NCBI GenBank assembly: GCA_965231825.1
Contig: OZ246889.1
Coordinates: 4,441,859-4,505,858 of the forward strand
Source of the DNA: Acidobacteriota bacterium
GTDB taxonomy: Bacteria; Acidobacteriota; UBA6911; RPQK01; JAJDTT01
Reading direction: 5' to 3'
DNA: 64,000 bases
Shown here: positions 11,150-53,449 of the stretch, in pieces
Layout: every line of letters begins with the position of its first letter
How positions within the stretch are numbered: position 1 is the first letter of the stretch
Notes under the pieces: model-generated
Told to the model about the DNA's origin: nothing
Seen by the model: only the letters and a program-made list of their open reading frames with translations
Databases searched by the model: none
Translations under genes and position numbers: made by a program

Positions 11150-13056
11150 GACCCCCCATTCCCGGAATCTTGATCCGGACCAGCGGGGGCAACCACCATC
11201 AACGGGATCTCCGCGACGGGCAGATCCGCGCCGACCCGTCCCCCGACCACCGGTCTGGCGGTCAAGCGGAAGGTTACTGGCATGCGCGTGACTGCAGCAT
11301 CCGAGTCGGCCAGAAGGACCAGGGTCGTCGTCTGCACGGCCGGCAAGAAGTTTTCCTTCTGCTGGCTGACGGGGGCGGAACTCTTCTTTTTCTCCGCATC
11401 GGCTCCCGGGAAGACCCGGACCCCGGGCGGCAGCTTGGAATAGTCAAAGAGGACTTCCCCGGCAAACCCTTCCTCTTGATGCGTGACGATGCTCAGTTTC
11501 CGGGCTCGTCCCGGGACCAGGTTGATCCGGTCGGAAGGGTCGACTTCGATGGCGCCGACGTGGGGAATCGGGGCGCGTACGAGCAGGCGATACCCGTAAT
11601 CCTGACCGCCGTACCGCGAGGTGACGTCGCTGACCTCCACGAAGTACCTGCCGCTTCGCTCCAAGGTGTAAGCCATCTTGGGTTCGACCGTTTTCAGAAA
11701 AGAACTGGGAATGCCGCCGCCGCTGTAGACCGTCTCGTGTTTGTGAACATTGGCCAGCAGCGATTCGCCCTGATCTCCGAAAAGCTCCAGGCGCGGGTTG
11801 AAATGGGGCGGCTCCACCCCGGAGGTCTCGATCTCAAAGACCAGTTCCGCACCCGCTTCCCCCTCGAACGCGTAGGTGTCGCGGTCGCCGGGCGCGCCGA
11901 TGCTGCCTTCGACGATGTCCCCCACGGCCAACGGCAAGGCCTGGCCGCGCACCCCGTTCGGCTCCTGTTCCTGGAGCCGTGACAGATTCCCGGGTACCGG
12001 TGCGACCGCCGACCCGGGAGAATCGGGGGACGCCGACAGGCTGCCGGCAGCGGAGGCGGTCTCCGGTGGTTGGGAACTCGGATTCGCCTGCCGGACCGTC
12101 CGGGAACGGAGACGGGCGGTCCACTCGCCGTCGATCTTCCGGGTGAAGTGCCGTTCCGTCCACGTGGCTTCAGAGGCTGCCTGCGCCGCCGGAACGGCGG
12201 TCAGAACCCGAAGCTGGTAGCCGCAGTCGGGGCCCCCTTTTCCGAAGAGCGATTCGACCTCCACCAGGTAGCGGCCCGATTCCTCCACGCGGTAGGTGTA
12301 CCGGTTCCGAACCGGAATCAGGTCGGAATTCTCCTGCTCCTGGAATAGAAGCCGGGTCGGACGGTCAGGATCGAGCCAGCTCCCCGTCGGCCGGTATAGG
12401 GCGAGCCGGGGCTCGAAGTGCACCGCCTGTGTGATTTCGAAGGTCAGTTCCTGACCGGCAACCGCGTCGAACCCGTAGGCGTCCAGCTCGCCATGCTCTC
12501 CGATGCGGCCGTTGACGATGACAGGGACGCCGATCTCCTGCGCTTGCCGCGCCGATGGATGCGGGGTATCGATCTCGCTGATCACGCCGCCTTCATCGAC
12601 CCGGAAATGGAGCGCGTTGGATACCCCCCGATGGGAGACCAGGCGAAAAGAATGGGTTCCGGCGGGAACCGATGATCCCACGGTGAGGTGCGCCGTTACA
12701 CGAAATAAGGGGGACGATTTCTCCTTTTTTGGAGACGGACGCGCCGGTTCAGGCCCCTCGATCATCTCGACTTCGCCGACTCGAGCCTCCAGCCCGGAGG
12801 AACCGAAGACGATCGAATAGGCGCCGTCCAGAGCTTCTCCCCGAATCTCGAGTTCGACGCCGGCCCCCTGCTGCCCGCCGGGAGGAAAGACCGAAATCAA
12901 CATCGGTTCGGGAGGGGCCTCGTCGCTGGAGGACTGCGCTCCGAGCCGGCCAGTGGACGGAACGAAAAACAACAACGCGATACAAGCCATCCCGAAGAAA
13001 CACGAACGGAATTCCGGGATTCCGGAGCGGCCAAGATGTCGCCGGCTTTTTACCAC
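11146..13056 (-). CDS. secreted protein with tandem pre-peptidase-C-terminal (PPC)-like domains
   Basis: Signal peptide. Repeated motifs typical of the PPC beta-sandwich (GEHGELDAYGFDAVAGQELTFEI; GDRDTYAFEGEAGAELVFEIE; GGQDYGYRLLV). Paralog of 56000-57922. First gene of cassette 1. Confidence 0.55.
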   Translation of the reverse strand: MVKSRRHLGRSGIPEFRSCFFGMACIALLFFVPSTGRLGAQSSSDEAPPEPMLISVFPPGGQQGAGVELEIRGEALDGAYSIVFGSSGLEARVGEVEMIEGPEPARPSPKKEKSSPLFRVTAHLTVGSSVPAGTHSFRLVSHRGVSNALHFRVDEGGVISEIDTPHPSARQAQEIGVPVIVNGRIGEHGELDAYGFDAVAGQELTFEITQAVHFEPRLALYRPTGSWLDPDRPTRLLFQEQENSDLIPVRNRYTYRVEESGRYLVEVESLFGKGGPDCGYQLRVLTAVPAAQAASEATWTERHFTRKIDGEWTARLRSRTVRQANPSSQPPETASAAGSLSASPDSPGSAVAPVPGNLSRLQEQEPNGVRGQALPLAVGDIVEGSIGAPGDRDTYAFEGEAGAELVFEIETSGVEPPHFNPRLELFGDQGESLLANVHKHETVYSGGGIPSSFLKTVEPKMAYTLERSGRYFVEVSDVTSRYGGQDYGYRLLVRAPIPHVGAIEVDPSDRINLVPGRARKLSIVTHQEEGFAGEVLFDYSKLPPGVRVFPGADAEKKKSSAPVSQQKENFLPAVQTTTLVLLADSDAAVTRMPVTFRLTARPVVGGRVGADLPVAEIPLMVVAPAGPDQDSGNGGS

Positions 13057-13165
13057 TCGGAGCTTTCAGGTATATGGTTTTTGGTTAGTCATGAATTGTA
13101 CCACTCGGGACCGGCAAGGGCGAGCACAGTGGAGGGTCTGCGCTCCGATCCGGCCTCGGCCTTCG

Positions 13166-13795
13166 TCAATTCTCGTCCAACTCTCTGACGTAAATGTTCC
13201 GGAACCACAGAGGCCAGCCGTGATGCTGGAGCACAATGGGGCCTTTGGACTGGTTGAAGTCGGCCTCATACCCATCGATCACGAGTTGGTCATTGAGACG
13301 CACAGTGACCGTTTCATCCTGAACGCGAATCTCGAAGTGGTTCCACTCTCCCAGCGGACGGTCGACGGTACGCAGCGGAACGCGGTCATTGGCCGTGTAG
13401 CCGACGATCCCACCCGACCCGTGGGGAGATGAGTACACCTCCGCCGTTCTGTCCCAGATCTCCACTTGCAGCTCGCCGCGCAGGTAGATTCCGCTGTTGC
13501 CGTCTTTCTCGATCTTCCAATCGATGAGCAGAATGAAATCGCCGTATTCCTTTTCGGTGCGCAAATTGCGCTCGAACACCGTGTCAGGCGCAGGTTGCCA
13601 GCCTCCGCCGTCGTAAACGATCATGCCGTCCTCGGCCCCCCAGTGGCCGCTGCCGTCATCCTTCCAACCCCTCAGATCGTGGCCATTGAAGAGCTTGGTA
13701 AATCCCTCGGGCGGCGAGTCGTGCGACGGCGTTGCACATCCTGGAACCAGGGCGATCACCGCGGCGATAAACAACAATTTCAGGGTTCTCATCAA
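13166..13795 (-). CDS. DUF1080 (3-keto-disaccharide hydrolase-like) lipoprotein
   Basis: Lipobox LVPGC. FNGHDLRGW, WKIEKDGNSGIYLRG and IVLQHHGWPLWFRNIYVREL are characteristic of DUF1080 jelly-roll proteins. Confidence 0.8.
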   Translation of the reverse strand: MMRTLKLLFIAAVIALVPGCATPSHDSPPEGFTKLFNGHDLRGWKDDGSGHWGAEDGMIVYDGGGWQPAPDTVFERNLRTEKEYGDFILLIDWKIEKDGNSGIYLRGELQVEIWDRTAEVYSSPHGSGGIVGYTANDRVPLRTVDRPLGEWNHFEIRVQDETVTVRLNDQLVIDGYEADFNQSKGPIVLQHHGWPLWFRNIYVRELDEN

Positions 13796-16416
13796 GGCTC
13801 CTCAGTTTTTGGATGTCGAGTGTGGAAGGCCGGGTCTTCCGGATTTCCGCCCGACCTTATGTAAGCCACCAAATCCAGAATTTCTTCCTCGGTCAAGATA
13901 TCGAGCAGTCCTTCGGGCATCTCTGAAATTCTCGAGACCGCGCGGGTTTTTATCCGGTCCGCGGCAATTTCGGTCACCCCTTGTGTGAACGGATTCCCGC
14001 GAACGCGCAGCAGTCTTCCATCGTCGTAAACGACGCGGCCGACATGCAATCGGCCATCTTCCATCTCGATCGACTCGTTGAAGAAGCGATCGGCGACCAC
14101 CTTGGAGGGATCGAGCAGCGCCTCCATCAGGTACTGCGCATCGAAACGATTTCCGGCCGTCGTGATGTCCGGCCCCGTCGTGCCTCCCTGGTCGCCAAAG
14201 CGGTGGCATCGGGCGCACTCCGCGGCCTCGTAGGCAGACTTTCCCTTCTCGTAGGAGCGGCCGCTATTCACCTGCTTGAGCCGGGGCAGAAAGTCGGCAA
14301 CCCGCCAAGCTCGCACGAATCCACGGACCGGTTCCTCGCCGGCCGCCGTCATGGCTCGTTGATCATCGAGGATCTCCTCAAGTGCCGCGAGTTCCTCGTC
14401 GCTGAGGGTTTCAACGGCCGATTGCCGAAGATTCTGAAGAGTGTAGATGAAACGGCTGTTGAGACCTCTCCTCCCAAATGCTTTCTCCGCACGAAGATAC
14501 TCTCCCTGGGACGAATTCAGGGCGCGGAAGAAGGTTTGGCGCTGCGGCAGCGTCCAACCCTCTCCGAGATGGCTCAAGGCGGCGAAATAAAAGAGCTTTT
14601 CCTGTCTCCCGCCGGAGTCGATCATTCTCAACGACTTGTCGATGACACCCGGATATTTCAAGTAGACCAGGAGCCGGCAAAGCTCCTGGTTCAGTGCCCG
14701 GCTGGAGGAAGGAAACATCCGTCCAAGACGCTTGGCGGCCTGTTGCCCCAACCCGTTGCGCGGGCCGCCCATCCGGACAAAGGCCAGACTGTAGGCGCGC
14801 AGCGCCTCCAGTAGTTGATCCTCGGGAAGTCGCTCCAGAGGAAGCCGGTCGAGCCTCGCCAAGACCGCCTCCTGCAACTCCGGCCGGCCGGTTCGCGCCA
14901 GGGCCAACATGGCCTGGACCGACGCGACGGTGTCGTTCTCGCGCAGCGCGCGGTCCTGCCACTCCGCGAGATCCTGCCGCTCGATGGCGACGCGCGCCGC
15001 ATAGCGGAGTGTGCGATCGGAGCTGGCCAGGTGAGGCCACGCCTCCGCCACCGCGCGCCTGTCGTTTCGGCTATGGAACTGCTCCAAGCGCCTGCGCGTT
15101 CGTCGTGCCCGCTCGGCTGCAGGATGGTCGGCGGGATCGGCCGGATCGGTGACTTCGTCTCCCCGATAGCGGATTCGAAATAGACCCGACTTGGCCTCTC
15201 TCCCGCCCACCGTGAAATACATGTCTCCATCCCGGTTGATCACGACGTCGGTAACGGGCACGGCACTTCCCGTCAGGAATGGCTCGAAGGCCGCCGAATA
15301 ACCCGCTCCCTGCGGTTTCAGGTGAACCGCATAGATCGTGCCCGACGCCCAATCGCACGCGAACAACACCCGCTGATAGCTGGCTGGAAACCGGGCCCCG
15401 GTTCCAAAAACCAGGCCGGTCGGCGATCCGTACCCGATATCGGCCACGCTGCCGACACTGTCTGGGTAGTGTTCCGGCCACTTTCCGTAAGGTGTCCAAC
15501 GCCCCGTGTCGTAGCGCCAGCCATACTCCCCTCCCGAAACCACCTGGTTGATGCGGGTGGGGCGGTACCAGGGCGTGCCGATGCCCGCTTCGCTGTCCGC
15601 ATCGAAGGCGAACAGCTCGCCGTCGGGATTGAACGCCAGGTCATAGGGGTTCCGGAAACCTCCGGCAATCAACTCCCAGACCGAACCCGTTTCGTCGGTA
15701 CGGGCAACCCAGCCGGCCGGCACGAATCCCGGCTCAGGGGGGATCAGCAGATCATTGGCCCAATTCCTGAACGGAGAAGTCGGCGCCAACCCTTCCGGAA
15801 CCTTGGTGCCATTGCCCGCAACGAGATAGATGAGACCGTCGGGGCCGAGCACCGCGGCGTGGGGCCCATGCTCGCCATGCCCGTTCTCGTTGTCCACAGC
15901 CTCCAATCGCTTCAGCAGCTTGACCTCGTCGAACCGGTCATCGCCGTCTGTATCCAGCACCCGGTAGAAGCCGCTGCCCTGCGCCACCTTCTCCTCGGAG
16001 GTCCGGTACAGGTTGACCGTGACATAGAGACTGTCGTGGGCGTAGAGAAGCCCTTGGGCGTGGCCGATGGGAAGATTCAGCTTCTCGACTCCGGTGACGG
16101 AATCTCCAGCTCCGAGAGTCACTCGGTAAAGACTCCCGAATTGATCGGCGGCAATCAGCCGCCCTTTGGAATCCGGCGTCAAAGCCACCCAGGAACCCTG
16201 TTCCTCCAGCGGCACCGAATAGACCAGGTCCACCTCGAATCCCTCCGGCACCTGAAGCTGTCGTGAGACTTCGAGAAGGCCGTCGTCGTGGGTTGTCTTG
16301 GGACCGAAAGGATCAAGCGGGCTCTGGCACGAAAAGGAAAAGCCGGACACGATGACGATGGCGGCCAAGCAGCTCCGCCAGCCGATCAGACGATCCTTGA
16401 GAAAAACTCCAGGCAT
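13792..16416 (-). CDS. multidomain beta-propeller / HEAT-repeat / c-type heme (CxxCH) dehydrogenase-like protein
   Basis: N-terminal propeller-like blades. Central HEAT-like helical repeats. C-terminal CARCHRFGDQGGTTGPDIT heme-binding motif typical of PVC-group 'membrane-bound dehydrogenase domain' proteins. 4-bp overlap with the DUF1080 gene. Confidence 0.65.
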   Translation of the reverse strand: MPGVFLKDRLIGWRSCLAAIVIVSGFSFSCQSPLDPFGPKTTHDDGLLEVSRQLQVPEGFEVDLVYSVPLEEQGSWVALTPDSKGRLIAADQFGSLYRVTLGAGDSVTGVEKLNLPIGHAQGLLYAHDSLYVTVNLYRTSEEKVAQGSGFYRVLDTDGDDRFDEVKLLKRLEAVDNENGHGEHGPHAAVLGPDGLIYLVAGNGTKVPEGLAPTSPFRNWANDLLIPPEPGFVPAGWVARTDETGSVWELIAGGFRNPYDLAFNPDGELFAFDADSEAGIGTPWYRPTRINQVVSGGEYGWRYDTGRWTPYGKWPEHYPDSVGSVADIGYGSPTGLVFGTGARFPASYQRVLFACDWASGTIYAVHLKPQGAGYSAAFEPFLTGSAVPVTDVVINRDGDMYFTVGGREAKSGLFRIRYRGDEVTDPADPADHPAAERARRTRRRLEQFHSRNDRRAVAEAWPHLASSDRTLRYAARVAIERQDLAEWQDRALRENDTVASVQAMLALARTGRPELQEAVLARLDRLPLERLPEDQLLEALRAYSLAFVRMGGPRNGLGQQAAKRLGRMFPSSSRALNQELCRLLVYLKYPGVIDKSLRMIDSGGRQEKLFYFAALSHLGEGWTLPQRQTFFRALNSSQGEYLRAEKAFGRRGLNSRFIYTLQNLRQSAVETLSDEELAALEEILDDQRAMTAAGEEPVRGFVRAWRVADFLPRLKQVNSGRSYEKGKSAYEAAECARCHRFGDQGGTTGPDITTAGNRFDAQYLMEALLDPSKVVADRFFNESIEMEDGRLHVGRVVYDDGRLLRVRGNPFTQGVTEIAADRIKTRAVSRISEMPEGLLDILTEEEILDLVAYIRSGGNPEDPAFHTRHPKTEEP

Positions 16417-16469
16417 TAAACTCCAGTCCCCTTTGCTTTAGTCCTCGCCCAAGCCTAGGATACCCAGAA

Positions 16470-17375
16470 TTGAAGGGAGAGACTTCCGTGACTGAGAACT
16501 CTTACCGTGTGGCACCGCCAGGTTTCACCCCGGATCAATGGGAAGAATTCCAGGAAAAGGGAATTCTGGTCTTCGAGAACGCCATTCCGCAGAAGGATGT
16601 GGAACGCTATATCGAGGCCATTGACCGCGTTGCCGCAGCCGATCCGAACTACTCTCCAGGCAAGGATTTCCGGCAGCCTCACTGCGTCGCCGCCGATCCG
16701 GTTTTGAGCGAGCTCATCGACCACCCCCGCCACGTGGGCTACGGCTACGATCTCTACGGCGAGCTGTTGAAGCTCCACCGCTCGGATATCTTCATCCGGC
16801 CCCCGGACTACAAGGACGAGTCCATGTGGCACCCGGACTCCCCTCGGCCCACGCCCTACGCCGTATTCTCGATGGATCTCCCTCTGCGCCTCTGCATCGG
16901 CCTCTGGCTCACGGATCTGCCCCATGCCGAAATGGGGAACTTCATCTACATGCCGGGCAGTCATCGAAACCAGGAATTTGAGCAGTACTACACTCACGAG
17001 AGCGTCCCGGGAGAAGTCCCCCTGGTGGTTCCCGCCGGAAGCATGACGGTGATGCACTGCGGGGTCTGGCACCGGGTCGACGTCAACCATTCGAACACGA
17101 TCCGAAAGAACATGTTCGTGAGCTACTGCCCCTCCTGGCTCTGGGAGGGAGACCGGCGGCAATGCGACCCCCGATGGATCGAGACGCTGAACCGGGAGCA
17201 GCGGATCATCATGCGCAGCTTTCCCACGGCCCATGACCGAACCAATCCACCGACGGAGGACGTCCCTCTCTTCCTGGCTCGGGAGACGGAGACCGACTCG
17301 GACGCCGATGCCAACTTCCGGATCCCGCTTCGGATCCGGAAACGCAAGACGATGCCGGAAAAACTGGCGAGCTGA
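16470..17375 (+). CDS. phytanoyl-CoA dioxygenase (PhyH) family Fe(II)/2-oxoglutarate oxygenase
   Basis: WHPDS...GSHR...WHRVDVNHS spacing fits the PhyH HxD...H facial triad. Size ~300 aa. Confidence 0.6.
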   Translation: MKGETSVTENSYRVAPPGFTPDQWEEFQEKGILVFENAIPQKDVERYIEAIDRVAAADPNYSPGKDFRQPHCVAADPVLSELIDHPRHVGYGYDLYGELLKLHRSDIFIRPPDYKDESMWHPDSPRPTPYAVFSMDLPLRLCIGLWLTDLPHAEMGNFIYMPGSHRNQEFEQYYTHESVPGEVPLVVPAGSMTVMHCGVWHRVDVNHSNTIRKNMFVSYCPSWLWEGDRRQCDPRWIETLNREQRIIMRSFPTAHDRTNPPTEDVPLFLARETETDSDADANFRIPLRIRKRKTMPEKLAS

Positions 17376-17462
17376 TACTCCGGTTGCCAGTTCTCATCCG
17401 GAAGGTCGGATTGAATAGAAGTCGGATGGAGTGAGGGTTGGAAGCGGTTTTCCGGACGAGAG

Positions 17463-20285
17463 CTAGTTGATCTTCCTGACAACCATTGTGACAACGTCCC
17501 TGTCGACCTGCCTTTTGTAGTAGACGTGGACGTAAGTCCCGGGCTCGTAGTTGTTCGTCTGGCCCTTGATCGATGCGGGCCCCATTTGGAACTCTCGGGT
17601 CCCCCACTTGGTTTGCATCACCAAGCGGTCGGATGTCATGGACTCGACAGTCCCATAGAAATCGTAGGTTTTGGCCGACTTGGTTTTCTTCCGGGATTTG
17701 GGCTTTTTCGCATCACCTGACTCGGTTTTTTTCCAGGCTGGTCCCGCTTTCCTGGTCGTCGAAGGTATTGAGAGGTCAATGTTCAGGAAAGCGCTCACGG
17801 TCAGTCCCAAATAGTTGACGTCAGTGACGATCAGCTCATTCTCGATGACGTCGAACTCTTGGCGCCACACATTCTGATTGTTATATGCATTAAAAACTGA
17901 AACACCGGCACTCGCTTTACTGGTTTCCCCAATGAAAAACTCCCGGCTTGCAGAAAGGTCCAACCGATGGTAGCTCGGAAGCCTGATCCCGTTCTTCTCT
18001 CCAAATTCCAACACCGAAAGATTTCTCCCATTGGGAAGGATCACGTCCTCAAATCCGATCGGTTCCGTGAAGGGCTTCCCCGTTGCGTAAACCCAGGTCC
18101 CTGAGAAGATCCAGTTCCTCCAATTGAAGCTGTCCACAACTTTAAACTCGTGAGTCGAGTCATGGGAAGCCGAAAACGGGTTGGGACTCAGTTGAGGGAA
18201 ATCGAGCTCTACTTGTCCCAAGGTGTAGGTAGCCCATCCCGTATTGCGGCCGAACTTCTTCTGCGCCAGGAATTCAACCCCCTTGGCTGTACCCGACCCG
18301 CTGTAGAACAGCGTGCCGAAGTCAAAATCTTGGAGGATCCTTCTCCCGAATCGGAGTGATGCGAATTCCGAGAGCCCGCTCAGTTTCTTTTGGTACGCCT
18401 CGATGTCAAACAGGAAGCTTGCCGTTTCATAGCTGGCGCCGCCTATGAAGTGTGTTGCCGAACTGACCGGCACCACATCCTCGTCAGAGAGCATCCAGAA
18501 GTCCTGGTCCCCTTGCAGCACGTCCTCACGGGTGAGCCTATTTGCAAACTGATGATATCGTCCTGCTGCCGCTTTCAAGCGGAACCGGTCTGTGGCATGG
18601 AAGGTAAAGGACATCCGGGGGTCGGTATATGTGCGTTGGACCACGTCAAAGTAGGTGAAGCGCAGACCAGGTGTCACGGACAGCCTGACCCAGGGAAGCC
18701 AAGTGTCCTGCAGATAGAAAGAGTACAGGACTCCGGCGCCGTCGCGGTCAAAAAGGGCCGTATCCTGATTGAAATTAAAATTATACCCAACAGTATTTTT
18801 CGTTATCTGTGTGCCAAACTGCAAGTGATGGCTGGCATTTAATATTAGATCATTGTCCACCTTGAGGCTGATGTCGGTTAAGTTATTGCGTTCTGACGAT
18901 CCTCTATTGAAGACTCTGGGAGCAGATTCCTCACCTGCCGCTCCCGCCACCTCTTCTCCCGTCTCCGGATCGACAAATGCGACCTCAGTGGTTCTGTCGA
19001 AATCCTTGAAGTAGGAGGAACGCGCTACGGTAAAGCGGCTGAAGAACGAGTTGTTCCACTGCCTGAACCAATTGATGCTCAGGCCGGTGTTTCCCCAGTT
19101 GGACAGATTCTTGATCTCTCCTTCGATATTCCGGTCCACAGAGGATTCGCCGTCTACACCCTGGAAGAAGGACCTGTTGATACTCAATGGTCTGGAGTTG
19201 TCCAGCACGTCCTCGCCATGGTAGAGGCTGAAAATGATGTTGTCTTGGGAAGTCAGATCGAAGGTTGCCCGGGTGTTGATATCGTAGAATGAGGAGTCCG
19301 GCTGGAACGAAAAGTTGGCCGGCCTGATGCCCCCGAAACCACCTCGACCGGGTCCTGTTGGCGTGCTCTCGCTGAAACTGTTCCGAATTCGATCGCTGAA
19401 GGGACTCTGAAACGACTTGCGACCGGCGACCATAACGGCCCCTCGACTGCCGAGTGGAACATCCGCGTAGGCATTGTAACTCAGAAAACTGAACCCTCCT
19501 CCGATGGAAACCTCGTCGCTGAGCCCGCTTCGCCCAGTCAAATCCACCACGCTGGAAAGTCTGCCTCCGTATCGGGAATCGAATCCTCCCTTGTGCATGG
19601 TTATGTCTTGGATTGAATTTGCGTTGAAGGCGCTGAAAATACCAAAGAAATGGTCGACATCGTAGACGGTAAATCCATCGAAGAGCACCAAGTTCTGATC
19701 GGGAGTGCCTCCTCTGATGTACAGTCCGGCGGAAGCTTCGTTGGTAGCGCTAATGCCGGGCATGAACTGCAGGGAACGAAAGGCATCCTTTTCCCCAAGA
19801 CTGGGCAGAGTTGCCAATTGTCTCGGGGAGACAGAAACAACTCCGATACTTTCCGACGCGCTCATCAGCTCGGGCATGTCCGGCCGGACTGTGACTTCAT
19901 ATTCCAACTGAGCAAGCTCCAAGATGATGTCCACCGTGATCGCCCGGTGCCCCTGCACCAGAACGGTTGTCTCCTTTTCCTCAAATCCCGGAAGAGCTGC
20001 GGTGACAACGATCTGACCCAATGGCACCTCGGGCAGGACATACATTCCCAAATCATCTGTCACAGTCGAAAACTCTGTTCCTTTAATCGATACGAAAACT
20101 CCCGGCAATACCTGGCCGTCGGTATCTTGGACGGTCCCCAAAATCCTTCGTCCTGAAATATTTTCCGTGGCGTCAATCGGCTCCTGCGCATGAACCTTCC
20201 CCGCGAGAAGAAACAGCAACATCAGGTATGTGAAAAACCGGATAAATTCCATCCTTTCGATTCCCTTCCCTTTCACGTTCCGCAA
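17463..20285 (-). CDS. TonB-dependent outer-membrane receptor (carboxypeptidase-regulatory-like N-domain + plug + barrel)
   Basis: Signal peptide. ILGTVQDTDGQVLPGVFVSIKGTEFSTVTDDLGMY (CarbopepD_reg-like). Plug motif DAFRSLQFMPGISATNEASAGLYIRGGTPDQNLVLFDGFTVYD. C-terminal beta-barrel ending in aromatic residues. Strongly lower GC than the flanks. Confidence 0.75.
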   Translation of the reverse strand: MRNVKGKGIERMEFIRFFTYLMLLFLLAGKVHAQEPIDATENISGRRILGTVQDTDGQVLPGVFVSIKGTEFSTVTDDLGMYVLPEVPLGQIVVTAALPGFEEKETTVLVQGHRAITVDIILELAQLEYEVTVRPDMPELMSASESIGVVSVSPRQLATLPSLGEKDAFRSLQFMPGISATNEASAGLYIRGGTPDQNLVLFDGFTVYDVDHFFGIFSAFNANSIQDITMHKGGFDSRYGGRLSSVVDLTGRSGLSDEVSIGGGFSFLSYNAYADVPLGSRGAVMVAGRKSFQSPFSDRIRNSFSESTPTGPGRGGFGGIRPANFSFQPDSSFYDINTRATFDLTSQDNIIFSLYHGEDVLDNSRPLSINRSFFQGVDGESSVDRNIEGEIKNLSNWGNTGLSINWFRQWNNSFFSRFTVARSSYFKDFDRTTEVAFVDPETGEEVAGAAGEESAPRVFNRGSSERNNLTDISLKVDNDLILNASHHLQFGTQITKNTVGYNFNFNQDTALFDRDGAGVLYSFYLQDTWLPWVRLSVTPGLRFTYFDVVQRTYTDPRMSFTFHATDRFRLKAAAGRYHQFANRLTREDVLQGDQDFWMLSDEDVVPVSSATHFIGGASYETASFLFDIEAYQKKLSGLSEFASLRFGRRILQDFDFGTLFYSGSGTAKGVEFLAQKKFGRNTGWATYTLGQVELDFPQLSPNPFSASHDSTHEFKVVDSFNWRNWIFSGTWVYATGKPFTEPIGFEDVILPNGRNLSVLEFGEKNGIRLPSYHRLDLSASREFFIGETSKASAGVSVFNAYNNQNVWRQEFDVIENELIVTDVNYLGLTVSAFLNIDLSIPSTTRKAGPAWKKTESGDAKKPKSRKKTKSAKTYDFYGTVESMTSDRLVMQTKWGTREFQMGPASIKGQTNNYEPGTYVHVYYKRQVDRDVVTMVVRKIN

Positions 20286-20641
20286 TTAGACGTGTCGCAT
20301 TTAAAAATGGTTCAATTGCAAACCACGATGCGCCTTTGCCGATGACGGGAACCAAAATGACCGAACCACCCCCTCGACCGGCTCCGGTTGGAGCCGGTCG
20401 AAGTGGCTCCTGCCGGATTGCCGCAGGGGGGAGGCCCCTCTGTTGGAGAAACCAGGAGAAACGAATCGTGACGGCGGAATTTGAAAACGGTTGCAGCAGA
20501 TTCTGAAACCAGCCGCATCCAGGGTCTCGATTCAAAGGCCTTGGAACGAGCGTTGACCCTTGGCAGAATTTGCCCGTCCAGGTCGAATCAAGGATGTGCC
20601 AAGTTCATGAGTCGAAAATTCGGGAAAGAGGAATGGGAACC

Positions 20642-22195
20642 ATGATCAAGAAACTATTCTTGCCGACGGTCCTTACTGCGTTCTTCACAGGTTCGGGTTG
20701 GGCCGGCCCGATCGACCGGGTGGTGGATGTCGGGACCGCCAAGCAACTGTTCGTCGATGACGCCGTCATCGGCTCCATGGAACGGGCCTATCGGGTGCTG
20801 AATCAACCGGTGAAGTACGAGGGGAATCCGATTCTCGCTCTGAAGCCGGAGCAGAAGGTTGGAGGCCAGGATCTGGTTGTCGTCATGGGGAACGTCATCT
20901 ACGACGCCGAAGAGCAGCTCTTCAAGATGTGGTACGACGCGGCCGTCTACGACTGGAGCAAGGTCTTCCTCGCCTACGCCACCTCAAAGGACGGCATTCG
21001 CTGGGAGCTGCCCAACCTGGGGCTGCTGGAACACCAGGGATCCAAGGACAACAACCTGGTCTTCACTGCCGGAAGAGGCGAGGTGGCGGGAGGCGTCTTC
21101 AAGGATGCGATCGAAACCGACCCGCAGCGCCGCTACAAGATGATCTACCACATGCACGAGTCTCCGGGATTGGAATCTTCGAGCAACGGCATCGGCATCG
21201 CCTTCTCACCGGATGGGATTCACTGGAAGCGGGCCACCGACAAACCGGTGATTCCCATGGCCGACAGCCCGAACTCGGTGATGTGGGATCCCCGATTGGG
21301 CACCTACGTCGCCCACACCCGGGTCAATCCTGTCTACCGTGCGCCGGACTGGAAGGTCCGCCGAGACCTCCGCGATGAATTGTGGCCCGGTGTGGAGGGA
21401 GGCTACCTGCGGCGAGAGGTTCTGCAGAGCGAGAGCGACGACTTCCTCAAGTGGGAGTCCCGGGGCGTGATCATGAGCGCCGACCGAAAAGATCCGCCTT
21501 GGAACCAGCAGTTCTACAACATGGAGTGGATGCCGTACGGTGACGTTTACTTCGGTTTCATCGCGGTTTACCACACGCTGCCGGGATTGGAGACCGCGAC
21601 CTCACGGCAGATCGAATCCGGACCCGATTGGCTGGACACGGTCGACATCCAGTTGGCTTTCAGCCGGGACGGCCGGACCTGGAAACGCGCCGGAGAACGG
21701 AACGTCTTCCTGCCTCTGGGGACCCAGACCGAAGCCTTTGACCGCAGCATGATCTACGTGATGCAGCATCCGCTCGTGGTGGACGACGAGATCTGGATCT
21801 ACTACATCGGCTTCAGCGGCCTCCACTGGGCGACCCGCCGGGAAGAGGTCCAGGGAGGCAAGGTCGGTTTGGCAAAGCTCCGCTTGGATGGTTTCGTGTC
21901 GATCGACGCCGGAAGCGGAGTCTTGACCACCAAGCCGATCCGGATGTCCGGAGAGCGGCTCGTGGTCAATGCCGATGCCGGCGAAGGGTCGGTCGCGGTC
22001 GAGATTCTGGAGCCCGGGGGAGCACCGATCAAGGGATTCGGCCGGCAAGACGCGGTGGCGGCCAAGGGAGACAGCCTGGGGCATGCCATGAAGTGGGCCC
22101 GGGGTTCGGACGTCAGTGCCTTGAAAGGGCGCCCCATTGTGCTGAGGTTCCACCTCGAACGCAGCAGGCTCTTCTCGTTTCGCTTCGCCGAATGA
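20642..22195 (+). CDS. secreted glycoside-hydrolase-like protein (5-bladed beta-propeller, GH43/GH32/GH130-type superfamily)
   Basis: Signal peptide MIKKLFLPTVLTAFFTGSGWA. LFVDDAVI..NPIL..W..DAEEQLFKMWY pattern typical of GH-F/GH-J propeller hydrolases. Start moved to the second Met. The family is not resolved. Confidence 0.45.
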   Translation: MIKKLFLPTVLTAFFTGSGWAGPIDRVVDVGTAKQLFVDDAVIGSMERAYRVLNQPVKYEGNPILALKPEQKVGGQDLVVVMGNVIYDAEEQLFKMWYDAAVYDWSKVFLAYATSKDGIRWELPNLGLLEHQGSKDNNLVFTAGRGEVAGGVFKDAIETDPQRRYKMIYHMHESPGLESSSNGIGIAFSPDGIHWKRATDKPVIPMADSPNSVMWDPRLGTYVAHTRVNPVYRAPDWKVRRDLRDELWPGVEGGYLRREVLQSESDDFLKWESRGVIMSADRKDPPWNQQFYNMEWMPYGDVYFGFIAVYHTLPGLETATSRQIESGPDWLDTVDIQLAFSRDGRTWKRAGERNVFLPLGTQTEAFDRSMIYVMQHPLVVDDEIWIYYIGFSGLHWATRREEVQGGKVGLAKLRLDGFVSIDAGSGVLTTKPIRMSGERLVVNADAGEGSVAVEILEPGGAPIKGFGRQDAVAAKGDSLGHAMKWARGSDVSALKGRPIVLRFHLERSRLFSFRFAE

Positions 22196-22402
22196 GGTTG
22201 GCCGCTTGGTCCTGGAGCCTGGGACATCCTGGAAGCCGGGACCGAGAAAGGAACAGTCTATTTTTCCGCGGCCTGCCGCGAGCACGACTACACCGCGGCG
22301 GACATCGAACCACGTTGCTCCGATCCCACCGGACGGAGGTGCTGGTGGCCTGGGATCGTCCTCCCGAGGCCGTCGAGTCGGTCCTACCGCCCTACGGACA
22401 TG

Positions 22403-22813
22403 TTAAAACGACGCCACGGAATCATGGACAACCGGTCCGGTCCCTCCAGCCAGCGTTTCGGGACAGGAGAAGAACCCGCGCACCGACTGCAGGACTTCCT
22501 CCATCTTCTCGATCCGGAGAGCACAGATTCGCTTGGCAATTAGCGACGAGTGCATCGTGAACAGCTTCGTAGTCTTCACCATCGACGCCTTGGGAAGCCC
22601 AACTTGCGCGAAGTCGCCGCGCCGGAGCTGCACCGAGTTCGGATCATACGTGATGTGCGAGGTAATGACTGCCAGCACGAGATCCTCTCCGGAGACGTTG
22701 AAGGAATCCGGGGAAAGGACCAGCGCGGGGCATCTCTTGGATGAAGTGAGATCGGTGAAGGGAAAGGATACGAGAACGATGTCGCCCTGCCTATTGGCTA
22801 TCGTAGACGGCAT
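22403..22813 (-). CDS. type II toxin, MazF/PemK (Kid) family
   Basis: GDIVLVSFPFTDLTSSKRCPALVLS is a classic PemK/MazF signature. Overlaps the upstream small ORF by 23 bp. Confidence 0.6.
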   Translation of the reverse strand: MPSTIANRQGDIVLVSFPFTDLTSSKRCPALVLSPDSFNVSGEDLVLAVITSHITYDPNSVQLRRGDFAQVGLPKASMVKTTKLFTMHSSLIAKRICALRIEKMEEVLQSVRGFFSCPETLAGGTGPVVHDSVASF

Positions 22814-22991
22814 CCTCCTCGTTCTCCCAGAACTCGAAGCTGCGCTCCGAACCCTTCAACCACGGAACATCTGCCGCAAGCCGTTTCAACTCGCTCTCTG
22901 AGAGGACTTGATAGACCTCATCGCGTGTGGGTCCCTCCACCTCCTCAAGGGGTGCGAAGACCCCATCCCGGTATTCCACCTTGATGCTCAT
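22791..22991 (-). CDS. putative antitoxin (DUF104/AF2212-like N-terminus)
   Basis: MSIKVEYRDGVFAPLEEV resembles DUF104 antitoxins. 66 aa. Translationally overlapped with the PemK-like gene. Confidence 0.4.
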   Translation of the reverse strand: MSIKVEYRDGVFAPLEEVEGPTRDEVYQVLSESELKRLAADVPWLKGSERSFEFWENEEDAVYDSQ

Positions 22992-23439
22992 GGCCCATTC
23001 ACTCTAGCAGTATACGGGCAGCACAGCCAGATTTCTCCGGAGTGCCCACTGTGGCCCCGTTCGAGCCCGTGGCCGTTCCGCCACGGTGGCGAAGGAATCC
23101 GTCCCGTGCACGTGAGCGATGCGCTGGCTTGTGACCCGCTACCGGTCACAAACCAGCCTACCCCATTCCTCCTCCGGTCGCGGTCCCTCCACATGTTTCC
23201 GACCGCGGAGGATGACAATGTCGGAGTCCGCAGTGCACCACCGCCTCCTCCCGCGTATCGCCAGCCGGACTCGCGGGCTGACAAGGCACGGCCATAGCTG
23301 GATGCTTTCGCGTACGCGCTCCTTCGGGCACGTGCCTTTGATGCACATTGAGATTTTGCACGCGGCACACAGCTCGCGCTAGTCGCTTGGGAGACGAGCG
23401 TCGAGATCGGAAGGCTTAGCATCAGCCCGTGGCAAAAGT

Positions 23440-23670
23440 CCGAGAATTAACGCCGAACCTCTGACACAGAAAAACCAATTGCAGCTTCATCGAAAGAAGT
23501 ACTGCCGGATCCCGCACCGGGGCAGCGCCACATTCCCAGCCTGGCCAAGATGCAACGCGAGATTGAGGCTTGGGTCGGGGATCGGGATCAACGCCTAACC
23601 GAGATCAACTGGCATTTCAAGACGAAGGATGCACGAATCAAGCTGAAGAGCCTGTACCCACAACTTTAAG
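23440..23670 (+). mobile_element. IS630/Tc1-like transposase C-terminal remnant
   Basis: Frame reads ...IEAWVGDRDQRLTEINWHFKTKDARIKLKSLYPQL*, resembling the extreme C-terminus of IS630-family DDE transposases. No intact ORF or inverted repeats were identified. Lower GC than the surroundings. Confidence 0.35.
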
Positions 23671-23682
23671 GGTTAATGTGTA

Positions 23683-24915
23683 CTACGTAGCTACCCAGTT
23701 GTAGCCTTCGCCTCGGGAAATGAAGGGACCCCACGGCTGCTTGTCCAGCACCTGCTTGGCGAGCCGCAGGAAGTTCCCGCCGATGATCTTCCGGATTTCG
23801 TCATCGTCGAGTCCGCGGCAAACCAGTCCCACCGTGAAGTACGGCCAGTTGCTCCAGGACATGGGCCGGGGCGGGTCGTCCGGCGTAAACGTCACGTTCG
23901 AGGGGACTCCCACGTGGTCGATGCCGGCCACCTTGATGGCGTGTTCCAGGTGGGGGAACCAGGCATTGAGGGAAAAATTGGTGTCCGGATCGTGCGAGAA
24001 GTCTGCGGCCATAATGCCCGCGATACCCCCCTTGCGAGCCAAAGTGCGAAGATAGTCGTCGTCTTCGTTCTTGTAGTAGTCGTCGACCGCCCGGCAGGCC
24101 GTGTGGGCATTCATGAGCGGTTCACTGGAGACCTCGATGGCATCCAGCCCCGAGCGGTGGCCGCAATGGGCCGGATTGACGATCATTCCCAGCTGGTTCA
24201 TCCGGCGAACCACCCGCTTGCCGAGCAAGCTGAGTCCCGCGTCTCTCCGACGTTCGAACTCGTCCGATGAGGCCAGGCTGTTCTTCTCGTGAGACGTCAA
24301 TTGGGAGACTCGGACTCCCAGGGCAAAGAAGAGATCCAGAGTTTGAAGCGGATCAGGAGTCATGGCAAACCAGTTGGCGCCATGAAGGTGCAGGAGGACG
24401 GCGCGGAAGCTGGGTTCATGGAAGTGCCCCACATCTTCCACCGCCAGGTCCATGCCGGCCAGGCGATACAGATTCCGGTAATCCTCTCGCCATTGGGGAT
24501 CAAAGGCTGATTCAAAGGCCTTCATGTCCCGCCACCGGTTGAGTACCCGCTGCTGGGTCTCCTCCCGGTCCGGACCCTCCCGCTCCAGCTTGTTTCGGTA
24601 GCCCTCCAGCTCACGCTTCAGACGGTCTCCCTTCCAGATGAAGAGAGGGTCCGCCACATAGAGACAGCCGCTGAGGTCGGCGACGTAGCTGCCGTAATGC
24701 AGCTCGAAACCCCGTTCCAGTTGGCTCCGGGTGGGCTTCAGCTCTTCCAGAACCGCATGCCGGCAGGCATCCACCACCTTCCGAATCTCCGGGCGGAGCG
24801 TGACCGGACGGAAGTCCTCCGGAACCGGAAGTGTCCTCTGGGTCCAGACACGGGTCGGAAGTGCTGCTCCAGCCAGGGAGGCCCCTACGAATCCACGTCT
24901 TGAAACCTTCTTCAT
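23683..24915 (-). CDS. M19 (renal/membrane dipeptidase)-like protein with Tat signal, copy 1 (carries internal ~38-aa deletion)
   Basis: MKKVSRRGFVGASLAGAAL Tat motif. C-terminal IGGNFLRLAKQVL typical of M19 dipeptidases. Near-identical at DNA level to 24955-26301. Confidence 0.6.
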   Translation of the reverse strand: MKKVSRRGFVGASLAGAALPTRVWTQRTLPVPEDFRPVTLRPEIRKVVDACRHAVLEELKPTRSQLERGFELHYGSYVADLSGCLYVADPLFIWKGDRLKRELEGYRNKLEREGPDREETQQRVLNRWRDMKAFESAFDPQWREDYRNLYRLAGMDLAVEDVGHFHEPSFRAVLLHLHGANWFAMTPDPLQTLDLFFALGVRVSQLTSHEKNSLASSDEFERRRDAGLSLLGKRVVRRMNQLGMIVNPAHCGHRSGLDAIEVSSEPLMNAHTACRAVDDYYKNEDDDYLRTLARKGGIAGIMAADFSHDPDTNFSLNAWFPHLEHAIKVAGIDHVGVPSNVTFTPDDPPRPMSWSNWPYFTVGLVCRGLDDDEIRKIIGGNFLRLAKQVLDKQPWGPFISRGEGYNWVAT

Positions 24916-24954
24916 TTTTCCTGTTGAGCCGGGCCGCCTTGACCAGGCCCGCGG

Positions 24955-26301
24955 CTATGTGGCCACCCAGTTGTAGCCTTCGCCTCGGGAGATAAAGGGA
25001 CCCCAGGGCTGCTTGTCCAATACCTGCTTGGCGAGCCGCAGGAAGTTCCCGCCGATGATCTTCCGGATTTCGTCATCGTCGAGTCCGCGGCAAACCAGTC
25101 CCACCGTGTAATAGGGCCAGTTGCTCCACGACATGGGCCGGGGTGGGTAATTGGGCATGAAGGTCAGATCCGAGGGGATGCCCACGTGGTCGATGCCGGC
25201 CACCTTGATGGCGTGTTCCAGGTGGGGAAACCAGGCGTTGAAGGAAAAACCGGAGTCCGGATCGGGCGACAGGTATCCAGCATACATACCCGCGACACCC
25301 CCATTCCGGGCCAGCGTACGAAGATAGTCGTCGTCTTCGTTCTTGTAGTTGTCGTAGATGGCCCGGCAGCCCGTGTGGGCATTGATGACCGGTTCGCTGG
25401 AGGCCTCGATGGCATCAAGCCCGGAGCGGTGCCCGCAGTGGGCTAGGTTGATGATGATTCCCAATTCGTTCATCCGGCGAACCACCCGCTTGCCGAGCAG
25501 GCTGAGTCCCGCGTCTCTTTCACCATCGAAATCGTCCGAGGAGGCCAAGCTGTTCTTCTCGTGATAGGTCAATTGGGAGGCACGGACACCCAGGGCGAAG
25601 AAGAGGTCCAGGGTCTGAAGCGGATCGGGGGTCATGGCGAACCAGTTGGCGCCATGGAGGTGCAGGAGGACGGCAACCTTTTCGTCCCGCCGGGCAGCCT
25701 CCAGGTCGTCAGCTCCTGATATCCGCAGGGCGTCGGCCTTGATCTTGTCGTAGACGAACCCGACCCGCGCCGTGTGCTGGAGGCCGGCGCGGAAGCTCGG
25801 TTCACTGAAATGCCCCACGTCTTCTACCGCCAGGTCCACACCAGCCAGGCGATAAGGGTTCCGGTAGTCATCTCGCCATTGGGGGTCGAAGGCGGATTCG
25901 AAGGCCTTCATGTCCCGCCACCGGTTGAGCATTCGCTGTTGGATTTCCTCCGGGTCCAGACCGTCCCTTTCCAGCTTGTTTCGGTAGCTCTCCAACTCAC
26001 CCTTCAGTCGGTCGCCCTTCCAGATGAAAAGAGGATCCGCCACATAGAGACAACCGCAGAGGTCGGCGACGTAGCTCCTGTAGTGCAACTCGAAACCCCG
26101 TTCCAGTTGGCTCCGGGTGGGCTTCAGTTCCTCCAGAGCCGCATGCCGGCAGGCGTCGACCACCTTCCGGATCTCCGGCCGAAGCGTGACCGGACGGAAG
26201 TCCTCCGGAACCGGATTGCTTCTCTGGGTCCAGACATGGGTCGGGAGCGCTGCCCCTGCCAGTGAGGCTCCGACGAATCCGCGCCTTGAAAGCATGGTCA
26301 T
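24955..26301 (-). CDS. M19 dipeptidase-like protein with Tat signal, copy 2
   Basis: Start set at MTMLSRRGFVGASLAGAAL (AAGGAG SD upstream). Has an extra segment HTARVGFVYDKIKADALRISGADDLEAARRDEKVAV that copy 1 lacks. Confidence 0.65.
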   Translation of the reverse strand: MTMLSRRGFVGASLAGAALPTHVWTQRSNPVPEDFRPVTLRPEIRKVVDACRHAALEELKPTRSQLERGFELHYRSYVADLCGCLYVADPLFIWKGDRLKGELESYRNKLERDGLDPEEIQQRMLNRWRDMKAFESAFDPQWRDDYRNPYRLAGVDLAVEDVGHFSEPSFRAGLQHTARVGFVYDKIKADALRISGADDLEAARRDEKVAVLLHLHGANWFAMTPDPLQTLDLFFALGVRASQLTYHEKNSLASSDDFDGERDAGLSLLGKRVVRRMNELGIIINLAHCGHRSGLDAIEASSEPVINAHTGCRAIYDNYKNEDDDYLRTLARNGGVAGMYAGYLSPDPDSGFSFNAWFPHLEHAIKVAGIDHVGIPSDLTFMPNYPPRPMSWSNWPYYTVGLVCRGLDDDEIRKIIGGNFLRLAKQVLDKQPWGPFISRGEGYNWVAT

Positions 26302-26456
26302 GTTCCCCTTCTCCTTTTGGGATCGTGTGATTTCGACTTGGCCCGACTGCTTTCGAGTTTCGTCTACGCTACTAAGATTCTTTCGCATCGGCCAGATTCC
26401 GGTGAAACCCCGGAAAAAATGGGATGGGGAGCGACTTTCTTGTCCCCAAGGAGCGG

Positions 26457-31330: not shown

Positions 31331-31422
31331 GATTCGTCTCGTCCGGCTACCGTCCATTTCGTCCCAGTATACTGCCGATCTTCGTTGACGATAGAAGCCT
31401 CGTGCGCCTGTGAACCCAGCCG

Positions 31423-33177: not shown

Positions 33178-34588
33178 TCATCCCCTCCAGCCGGGCCAGG
33201 AGCGCCTCGATTTCCCGCAGCAGGGCATGCTGTTGGGACGCAGCGGCCATCTGCTTTGCTTTCAGCGCGGCCTCTTTGGCCTTTTGAAACTGTTTCAGCT
33301 CGATCCGGACCAGGGCCAAGGTGTGCAGGTACACGGGCGTGCCCTCGTTCTCGGGTTCCAGTGTCCTCTCCAGGTGCCGAACCGCTTCGGCGGGCTTGCC
33401 TTGAGTCATGAGCAGGCGCGCCAGATTGAAGTGGGGGAGATGGAAATTGGGCTCGTACTGGATGGCCAGGCGGAAATGACGCGCCGCTTCGTCGGCCTGC
33501 CCCTTCTGGGCCAGCAGATACCCCAGGTTGTTGTGGCTCAGGGCGTGATAGGGGTTGATCTCCAGAGCCTTCCTCAGCACTTCCTCGGCCTCACCCATAC
33601 GGCCGGACATGCCCAGGAACATGCCGAAGTTGTAGTGGGTCTTGTACATGCCCGGGTCGATGGCCACCGCCTTGCGGTAGTGTTCCTCCACCTTTGCCGG
33701 GTCGCGCAACACAACGTACAGGGAGGAGAGGTTCCCGTGGACGACGGAATGATCCGGGTCGATCTCCAGTGCCTTCAGAAAAGCGGTTTCCGCGGCGCGG
33801 AAATCCCCTTGATCTCGAAGGGCGATCCCATTCTCCAGGTACCAGGTGGCGCCGGAGGCGAGTGACTGGATCGCGTCAAGCAGCGGGTCCTTGCGGGGAG
33901 GCTCCTTGGCCGAGCTTTGCCGGAACTGGACGAGATGCTCCCGCATCTTGGCTCCGTCACCCAGGTTCCGGTAGGCCAGACCGAGAGCGTAGTGGCTGGC
34001 CCCGTATTCAGGGAACAACTCGCAAGCCTTCCGGAAGTGTTCGACCGCCCCTGTCAGATCGCCGGTCTCGGCGTGGACGCGCCCCAGACCATAGTGAGCC
34101 ACGGCCGATCCGGGGTGGTCCCGGATGATCGCTTGGAATGCCTCGCGGCTCTCATCCGGCCGGCCCAGTTGCTGGAGGACTTCCGCCAGCGCCAGGCGCG
34201 CCGCGAGGTCATCCCGTCTGAGCGTTACGGCCTGACGAAACGCGGACGCCGCTCCCTCCAGCTTTCCCATCGGGACCCGGACGACTCCCAGGTAGTAGGC
34301 CCAGGGGTAATGGTCGGAGACCAGCAGGTGAGCCCTGAGATAGAGTGCCTCCGCCAGCTTGTAGCGCTTATGGGCATGGAGGATCATGCCCAGTTTTCCG
34401 TTGGCCTCCGCAGACTTGGGCTCCGAGCCCAGCCGGTTGGCGGCCGCCTCGATCTGTTCCCATGCCCTGGCTTCGAATTCATCCTTCCACGGGGCCAGAT
34501 CCGGAATGGGGGGCAGGTCCTCCACCGCTGCCGGGGTCACCAATGAGACCGTGAAGCTCAAGCCCAGAACCAACAGAAACGCGCTCAT
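33158..34588 (-). CDS. TPR-repeat protein, secreted
   Basis: Signal peptide MSAFLLVLGLSFTVSLVTPAAV. At least 8 TPR units (AxxYxxAL..P..A.A..nLG pattern). The ORF upstream of this Met is alternate-frame read-through of the neighbouring CRTAC1 3' end. Confidence 0.7.
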   Translation of the reverse strand: MSAFLLVLGLSFTVSLVTPAAVEDLPPIPDLAPWKDEFEARAWEQIEAAANRLGSEPKSAEANGKLGMILHAHKRYKLAEALYLRAHLLVSDHYPWAYYLGVVRVPMGKLEGAASAFRQAVTLRRDDLAARLALAEVLQQLGRPDESREAFQAIIRDHPGSAVAHYGLGRVHAETGDLTGAVEHFRKACELFPEYGASHYALGLAYRNLGDGAKMREHLVQFRQSSAKEPPRKDPLLDAIQSLASGATWYLENGIALRDQGDFRAAETAFLKALEIDPDHSVVHGNLSSLYVVLRDPAKVEEHYRKAVAIDPGMYKTHYNFGMFLGMSGRMGEAEEVLRKALEINPYHALSHNNLGYLLAQKGQADEAARHFRLAIQYEPNFHLPHFNLARLLMTQGKPAEAVRHLERTLEPENEGTPVYLHTLALVRIELKQFQKAKEAALKAKQMAAASQQHALLREIEALLARLEGMSVLGTE

Positions 34589-34620
34589 GCTCTTCCGTCT
34601 CCGTTCTCCCCTCTGCCAGC

Positions 34621-53419: not shown

Positions 53420-53449
53420 TCCCGAGCCCAGGTTGGGCCCGAGGTTCCG

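Follow-up and report, generated by a model that had tools for sequence, protein, structure and literature searches.

The 64-kb stretch of contig OZ246889.1 that was analysed here as a whole ("the window") is deposited under the name of an Acidobacteriota bacterium. At positions 17463-20285, it carries an open reading frame (ORF) for a TonB-dependent transporter, which is the strongest compositional outlier within the 64 kb. The GC content of these positions is 52.6%, against 62.1% in the whole window and 62.6% and 61.0% in the 10-kb flanks. They also form the lowest 2.8-kb stretch of the window, about 4 standard deviations (sd) under the mean. The maximum-scoring low-GC segment extends from 17359 to 20693, with 52.7% GC and a score of 159.6; in 500 shuffles of 100-bp blocks, the mean score was 29.7 and the maximum was 63.5. 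From these bounds, the island amounts to one gene plus two intergenic regions. The initial annotation of this DNA, which a model had made from the sequence alone, described a low-GC island made up of one gene, whose product is a TonB-dependent receptor with an N-terminal domain of the CarboxypepD_reg type, and both the GC segmentation and the Pfam matches bear this out. The island lies where it had been placed, and the contrast is weaker than the 40-50% against ~65% GC given there. Values of 47-49% are reached in just a few 300-bp intervals, one of which contains the 45-mer that had been quoted as an illustration (18781-18825). The gene and the tract around it comprise the following features:

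17463..20252, minus strand: coding sequence of a 929-aa TonB-dependent transporter (stop 17463-17465, ATG 20250-20252; Pfam CarboxypepD_reg and Plug matches, structural model)
20187..20252, minus strand: signal peptide, residues 1-22 (MEFIRFFTYLMLLFLLAGKVHA, then QE; read from the sequence, helix 3-18 in the model)
19920..20144, minus strand: CarboxypepD_reg beta-sandwich, the N-terminal extension, residues 37-111 (PF13620 E=7.6e-13, PF13715 E=2.2e-11)
19878..19904, minus strand: TonB-box-like motif EYEVTVRPD, residues 117-125 (family consensus "EVTV")
19548..19841, minus strand: plug domain, residues 138-235 (Pfam match 152-231, PF07715 E=2.3e-9, 38.2 bits vs. a cut-off of 23.9; model)
17766..19547, minus strand: beta-barrel, residues about 236-829, with the last strand VNYLGLTVSAFLNIDL (model strands, Foldseek, alignments)
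17679..17765, minus strand: periplasmic linker, residues 830-858, a conserved AGPAW turn, then a disordered stretch rich in Lys and Ser (predicted local distance difference test (pLDDT), alignment)
17466..17678, minus strand: CusF/DUF5666-like oligonucleotide/oligosaccharide-binding (OB) barrel, residues 859-929 (domain model, Foldseek, profile search)
20253..20641, no strand: upstream intergenic region, 54% GC, divergent from the next gene, within the low-GC and low-divergence tract
17359..20693, no strand: low-GC segment, the transporter gene with both intergenic regions (maximum-scoring segment, GC profile)

The product is predicted to be an outer-membrane TonB-dependent transporter, encoded by a monocistronic gene. 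The ORF of the initial annotation opened at an upstream TTG (20285); translation most likely begins at the ATG at 20252, which has a purine-rich stretch ahead of it and a typical signal peptide after it. The CarboxypepD_reg models score 49.1 bits (PF13620) and 44.1 bits (PF13715), both over the Pfam cut-offs. The motif EYEVTVRPD is a putative TonB box, judging from its usual place between the N-terminal domain and the plug. The barrel family PF00593 is below threshold for the transporter itself and on record for most homologues. The full-length AlphaFold model, built with 118 homologues, has a pLDDT of 82.4 and a predicted template modelling score (pTM) of 0.74 and comprises a beta-sandwich at the N-terminus, a plug, and, enclosing the plug, a long barrel that is taken to be of the 22-strand type. 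The best Foldseek matches in the PDB are PfeA, PirA, BtuB, FepA, FecA, and FhuA, with E-values of about 1e-21. PfeA, FepA, PirA, and BtuB share the plug-in-barrel fold (template modelling (TM) score 0.6-0.74, normalised to the target); they lack the N-terminal extension and the C-terminal domain, and their identity to the transporter is 10-14%, at which a substrate cannot be read from the resemblance. Names that JGI assigns automatically to homologues, "ferric enterobactin receptor" among them, are generic. The transporter would probably serve in the TonB-energised uptake of a scarce substrate, for which its tethered periplasmic domain would be an acceptor or a docking module. Around the gene, no Rfam match (riboswitch or other RNA) was found in 16000-24000 at E<=0.1, the scan for sigma-70 consensus promoters and terminators gave nothing over the shuffle expectation, and TonB, ExbB, and ExbD were absent from the window ORFs scanned.

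In its domain order, the transporter resembles Oar of Myxococcus xanthus, which also has a CarboxypepD_reg (PF13620/PF13715) extension, a plug, and a barrel, and some homologues of the transporter carry faint PF25183 matches. Oar is about 1,060 aa long. A C-terminal OB domain has not been reported for it, and the likeness is one of architecture, with nothing here pointing to a role in protein secretion. The "Oar architecture" occurs in 28% of 34,893 TonB-dependent transporters across many phyla (Gomez-Santos et al., PMC6434023). For this reason, the CarboxypepD_reg extension is not a hallmark of Bacteroidota, and in annotation it is an unsafe marker both for that phylum and for SusC.

The part of the protein that lies past the barrel deserves separate attention. 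TonB-dependent transporters normally end at the last barrel strand with an assembly signal. In the present gene and its long-form relatives, the last strand, VNYLGLTVSAFLNIDL in the transporter, aligns with the ...F C-terminus of the short-form relatives, which end there without an extension; beyond it come an AGPAW turn, 20-35 residues rich in Lys and Ser, and a conserved domain, about 70 residues in length, with the pattern YDFYGTVESM...GT.VHVYY...VTMVVRKI. This extension is kept in about 60 acidobacterial sequence clusters. In the full-length model, residues 844-859 of the linker have a pLDDT below 50, and the OB domain is confident there. When the domain was modelled alone with 37 sequences, the pLDDT was 93.3, the pTM was 0.80, and five strands were formed. 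The best Foldseek matches were E. coli CusF and the CusF-like C-terminal domain of SilB, which have the same small five-strand OB barrel (TM 0.74-0.83, root-mean-square deviation (rmsd) 1.8-3.2 A), with cold-shock and other OB folds at lower ranks. Superposition on the CusF structures 1zeq, 2qcp, and 2vb2 gave a TM score of 0.80-0.83 and an rmsd of 1.8-2.3 A, as expected of an OB barrel. In SilB, too, the CusF-like domain is periplasmic and forms the C-terminal end of a transport protein of the envelope.

The resemblance to CusF and SilB is structural. The identity is 12-18%, and the hhalign comparison is not significant. In the alignment to the Cu(I)/Ag(I) site of CusF (H36-M47-M49 with W44), the ligands are placed opposite gaps or residues that are not conserved (hhalign E=0.18); thus, metal binding by the domain is unsupported. 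Pfam models gave no match to the domain even at E<=10, CusF_Ec included, and none of the PDB sequences matched it. A profile search of 1.84 billion representative proteins gave 86 matches, which were transporter C-termini, stand-alone proteins of about 100 aa, and, more weakly, tandem-repeat proteins assigned by Pfam to DUF5666, CusF_Ec, or DUF1344. The domain itself is under every Pfam threshold, while its profile reaches the DUF5666 (PF18914) repeat proteins; in the transporter, a single copy is present and is fused to a barrel. Some of the versions of about 100 aa are secreted stand-alone proteins, and no separate gene for the domain was found beside the short-form relatives.

In the established topology of TonB-dependent transporters, both termini of the barrel face the periplasm, so the linker and the OB barrel must be periplasmic, with the domain tethered under the barrel by about 30 flexible residues. 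A loose parallel is provided by OmpA, in which an 8-strand barrel is followed by the peptidoglycan-binding periplasmic domain OmpA_C. Both proteins have an internal last strand, a linker, and a globular periplasmic domain, and they differ in the number of strands (8 vs. 22) and in the OB fold. The domain could act as a cargo acceptor, a docking module, or an anchor. That it is a built-in periplasmic acceptor for a metal, a metallophore, or another ligand leaving the lumen, or a dock to a periplasmic partner, is a speculative proposal with a low probability; if it were true, the coupling mode would be one not described for TonB-dependent transporters. No description of a CusF-like C-terminal OB domain on such transporters was found in the searchable literature, where absence is no proof. 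The architecture is apparently undescribed, and it is the part of the result that is worth keeping. Acidobacteriota are abundant and little studied, and they encode very large sets of TonB-dependent transporters; if the domain handles cargo or partners, it would offer a handle on how these sets are used.

The low GC content of the gene has two components. Its GC contents at the first, second, and third codon positions (GC1, GC2, and GC3) are 0.516, 0.420, and 0.643, compared with about 0.64, 0.45, and 0.78 in the credible genes of the window, and its z-scores relative to the window genes are -3.7 (GC3) and -5.3 (total GC). When the amino acids of the protein were encoded with the pooled synonymous usage of 31 other window genes, a GC content of 58.2% was expected, against 52.7% observed and a host gene mean of 62.8% (sd 1.9); in the same calculation, GC3 was 0.642 observed vs. 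0.781 expected. About 45% of the deficit is thus a matter of amino-acid composition, and about 55% is due to synonymous choice. The Kullback-Leibler divergence of the codon usage is 0.104, and other genes of more than 600 codons reach at most 0.056, about half of this value. A/T endings are favoured in nearly every codon family and AGA/AGG are enriched, a shift that resembles the effect of another mutational background more than that of selection on individual codons. The deviation therefore exceeds what the amino-acid content explains, as is expected of a horizontally acquired gene. The mismatch with the host in GC3 and codon usage, on which the initial annotation had proposed that its reading be checked, is real. 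The codon usage is also closer to that of the genes flanking the related copy L088 (mean absolute difference of 0.069; L088 is described below) than to that of the host's own genes (0.102).

Close relatives of the gene are acidobacterial. A search of a large protein database gave 3,186 matches, in which the top clusters, about 60 in number, are full length (about 930 aa), and the named ones are Acidobacteria. In a GTDB scan of one genome per species, all long-form loci carry Acidobacteria or Acidobacteriota labels except one, a 3-kb contig labelled "uncultured Enterobacteriaceae", which is an implausible label. Next in rank are Aminicenantes and other Acidobacteriota, with forms of about 830 aa (about 45% identity), followed by sequences from Bacteroidota, Gemmatimonadota, and Vicinamibacteria (39-44%). 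In a neighbour-joining tree of the barrel region, the order from the window sequence is L005, L004 (81% identity), L006/L007 (71-73%), L001 (59%), and other acidobacterial long forms; in pairwise comparisons, L088 and L090 rank with L006/L007 (70-73% identity to the window). As far as the sequences indicate, the transporter subfamily is confined to Acidobacteriota in the sampled genomes. The initial annotation had named best homologues from the same phylum with similar composition as the outcome that would overturn a foreign origin, and the part concerning the phylum has come true.

The best GTDB locus, L005, lies on OY764083.1, a 5.5-Mb chromosome of a metagenome-assembled genome (MAG) deposited as an Acidobacteriota bacterium, and its product is 98% identical over the whole protein. 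Around it, 22.8 kb is collinear with window positions 7623-26374 at an identity of mostly 94-99%, which indicates that the window comes from a close relative of the OY764083.1 organism. The Acidobacteriota label of the host is probably right.

The comparison of host genomes points to an unusual history of this particular allele. In most other hosts, with GC contents from 36% to 67%, the GC3 of the orthologue differs from that of the flanking genes by -0.04 to +0.16, and GC1 falls short of the flanks by 0.07-0.12 in every host. GC3 tracks the flanks, so the family adapts to the composition of its hosts, and the effect of the amino acids is a general one. Relative to the flanks, a GC3 deficit of 0.12-0.15 was found in the window, L005, and L004 only. 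Since the orthologues match the host GC3 in most hosts, this deficit is specific to the lineage of these three. The sister copies L088 and L090 lie in DNA of 50-55% GC and match its composition.

The divergence at synonymous sites (dS) gives a second line of evidence. Between the window and L005, dS is 0.024 for the transporter gene, 0.31 for the adjacent PhyH gene, 0.13 for the adjacent gene X541, and 0.09-0.38 for other genes. Between the window and L004, it is 0.63 for the transporter gene and 0.31-0.37 for three flanking genes. The discordance in both comparisons indicates that the history of the transporter gene is decoupled from that of its neighbours. The tract of low divergence from L005 (about 17400-20900) coincides with the low-GC tract, and homology between the window and the related loci does not reach more than a few bases past the coding sequence. 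An empty-site search by way of PhyH relatives in metagenomes yielded one usable locus, L091 (76% identical), which is rearranged and has no transporter beside PhyH; this is a weak indication.

The account favoured here, with moderate confidence, is a transfer or an allelic replacement within the phylum, from a lower-GC acidobacterial lineage. A foreign origin of the allele, as claimed in the initial annotation, is plausible, given a GC3 and a codon usage unlike those of the host. That the acquisition was "recent" is doubtful, as two other related genomes carry the same low-GC gene. Under the proposed sequence of events, a lineage of about 50-56% GC would have donated the allele, and recombination at the locus would have continued among related strains; the event would have preceded the three related genomes that carry the allele or would have been repeated across them. 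A rough two-state relaxation estimate, made by the author of the analysis, is compatible with one acquisition before the window and L004 lineages split, with a donor GC3 of about 0.55 relaxing to about 0.65 over the divergence between the window and L004. The low GC content would then have two causes, the family-wide amino-acid composition and a lineage-specific preference for A/T-ending codons like that of the 50-56% GC genomes with the closest outgroup copies. As a transfer event, this would be ordinary, one more swapped outer-membrane gene among related soil or sediment Acidobacteriota.

Several observations weigh against a transfer of this kind. The GC-normalised dinucleotide signature (Karlin) of the gene is host-like (delta* of 59 vs. 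51 +/- 16.5, rank 18/80). Substitutions polarised with an outgroup comprised 8 AT->GC and 15 GC->AT changes, with no drift toward the host GC content; the counts are small (23 changes), and the flanks likewise show a GC->AT excess. The closest sampled sequence that could represent a donor is about 71% identical. The only other outer-membrane protein (OMP) gene in the window, at 61964-62929 (PF13505), has a GC3 of 0.68 vs. 0.78 for the window. The direct repeats or att-like sites that the initial annotation had thought worth seeking in the flanks are represented by chance-level matches only, such as a 12-mer at 17233/20357, with about 1.7 expected by chance, and no tRNA, integrase, or transposase lies beside the gene in the window; transposases adjoin the transporter gene only in the relatives L004 and L088. 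The host phylum rests on the depositor's label of one MAG. The M24 peptidase of the neighbourhood gave Chloroflexota names alone (56% identity), and the names of homologues of this gene and of the DUF1501 gene, among them Acidobacteria, Acidimicrobiia, Planctomycetes, and Caldilineaceae, are uninformative on the phylum.

Some of these points also speak for vertical inheritance, in which no transfer took place and the atypical composition results from the amino-acid content together with relaxed or different codon selection in OMP genes. This is a real though clearly less probable possibility. It would account for a low-GC gene in three related genomes, at the same place in the window and L005, and it agrees with the host-like dinucleotide signature, the lack of drift, and the second OMP gene of low GC3. 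The amino-acid share of about 45% is family-wide, as is the lowered GC1. Both copies in the MAG KW1-S15_197 are also about 5-6 GC points under their flanks, with a smaller GC3 deficit of 0.05-0.07. However, the orthologue GC3 equals or exceeds that of the flanks in most other hosts, so the family has no intrinsic tendency to low GC3, and the A/T shift spans nearly all codon families, resembling a lower-GC genome. Vertical inheritance also fits poorly with dS values that are discordant with the flanks in both pairwise comparisons and with the rearranged, transposase-adjoining context of the gene in L004 and L088.

A very improbable explanation, already contradicted by the data, is that of the initial annotation, in which a genome of the Planctomycetes-Verrucomicrobia-Chlamydiae (PVC) group recently acquired a SusC-type receptor from Bacteroidota. 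Like SusC/RagA, the transporter has a CarboxypepD_reg-like domain at its N-terminus, then a plug and a 22-strand barrel, and homologues exist in Bacteroidota. However, it scores 29.8 bits against the TIGR04056 cut-off of 368.25, with only the N-terminal 180 residues aligning, and no solved SusC structure is among the top 50 Foldseek matches of its model. The N-terminal domain is the one common to 28% of transporters (PMC6434023). The absence of an adjacent SusD gene had been noted correctly: the neighbours are PhyH and a protein without a Pfam match, and no SusD family gene was found at the window locus or beside the homologues inspected. The Bacteroidota relatives, which are at most 44% identical, have no C-terminal domain and form a separate deep clade in the neighbour-joining tree, in which the window sequence is nested within the acidobacterial clade. 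On present sampling, a Bacteroidota donor is excluded by this separation, and the nearest relatives all bear Acidobacteriota labels, the 3-kb contig excepted.

A PVC genome as the recipient is likewise unsupported, since the window is collinear with a chromosome deposited as Acidobacteriota. The PVC call was probably prompted by genes that recall planctomycete content, namely, PSCyt2/PSD1, DUF1501, and FG-GAP/ASPIC genes. Pairs of PSCyt2/PSD1 and DUF1501 genes are located at 31-3540, 8555-11149, and 52049-55996, and four FG-GAP/ASPIC genes lie within 29339-38198. The PSCyt/PSD1/DUF1501 genes have acidobacterial best matches; for the DUF1501 protein, the best named homologues are from Acidimicrobiia, Acidobacteria, and Bryobacteraceae, ahead of Planctomycetes. 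Such "planctomycete-type" genes (PSCyt/PSD1/DUF1501) are unsafe markers for PVC in annotation.

An assembly or binning artefact, in which a fragment of a lower-GC organism was joined into the contig, would produce the sharp compositional boundaries at the gene ends and is nevertheless the least credible explanation, because the same junctions are present in the independently assembled L005 chromosome and in an ENA contig of 17 kb whose protein is 99% identical, and the identity to L005 is unbroken across both boundaries.

The related loci show further rearrangements. Compared with L005, window positions 7600-26400 form a recombination mosaic, with a dS per gene from 0.02 to 0.38, and a sharply diverged patch of about 83% identity occupies window positions 13500-15250, inside a GSDH/cytochrome c gene. 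In L004, from a relative of about 88-90% identity, the transporter gene (region 331-8250) is inverted relative to tandem M19 dipeptidase genes, and a DDE_Tnp_1_4 transposase separates it from them at the place where the window has X541 and MazF. The copy of L088, at 10001-12772 of a contig of about 52% GC, is 70% identical and broken by a frameshift into pieces of 666 and 249 aa; around it are two DDE_Tnp_1_4 transposases and an rve integrase. On both sides of this gene lies a repeat of about 108 nt (9058-9165 and 12797-12836), which recurs upstream of the L090 copy (3990-4093). In general, the long-form gene is solitary, and its neighbours vary by genome, including two-component systems, SNF transporters, isoprenoid or ribosomal genes, and insertion sequence elements. 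No conserved neighbourhood of the long-form gene was found, and the surroundings of a solitary gene in unrelated contexts say nothing about the substrate.

In the window, the transporter gene is bordered by the following features:

16470..17375, plus strand: PhyH-family dioxygenase gene, convergent with the transporter gene (PF05721 E=1.4e-13)
20642..22195, plus strand: X541, a secreted protein without a Pfam match and with weak similarity to the GH117 anhydro-alpha-L-galactosidase (PDB 4ak5-7, E=1.4e-3)
22403..22991, minus strand: MazF/PemK toxin gene (22403-22813) with an overlapping 66-aa upstream ORF (22791-22991) (PF02452 E=4.9e-16; ORF list)

The first of these had been recognised as PhyH from the sequence, and PF05721 agrees; the label "glycoside-hydrolase-like" given to the second has weak support in the GH117 similarity (E=1.4e-3). 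Farther away, the OMP beta-barrel gene at 61964-62929 (plus strand) has a codon usage that resembles that of the transporter gene; its low GC3 could be an effect of gene class, or the gene could be a second foreign one. The sole ARAGORN call in the window is a tRNA-Leu(taa) at 5108-5191 (plus strand), 12 kb from the gene and inside a 1001-aa ADH/enoyl-CoA hydratase fusion ORF (4258-7263, minus strand), and it is probably a false positive. The MazF gene and the 66-aa ORF probably form a type II toxin-antitoxin pair. Between the X541 and MazF genes, L005 has a 1.13-kb insertion with a 240-aa ORF (6886-8057), which is not present in the window (about 22200). A toxin-antitoxin pair and an indel beside the island fit a variable zone.

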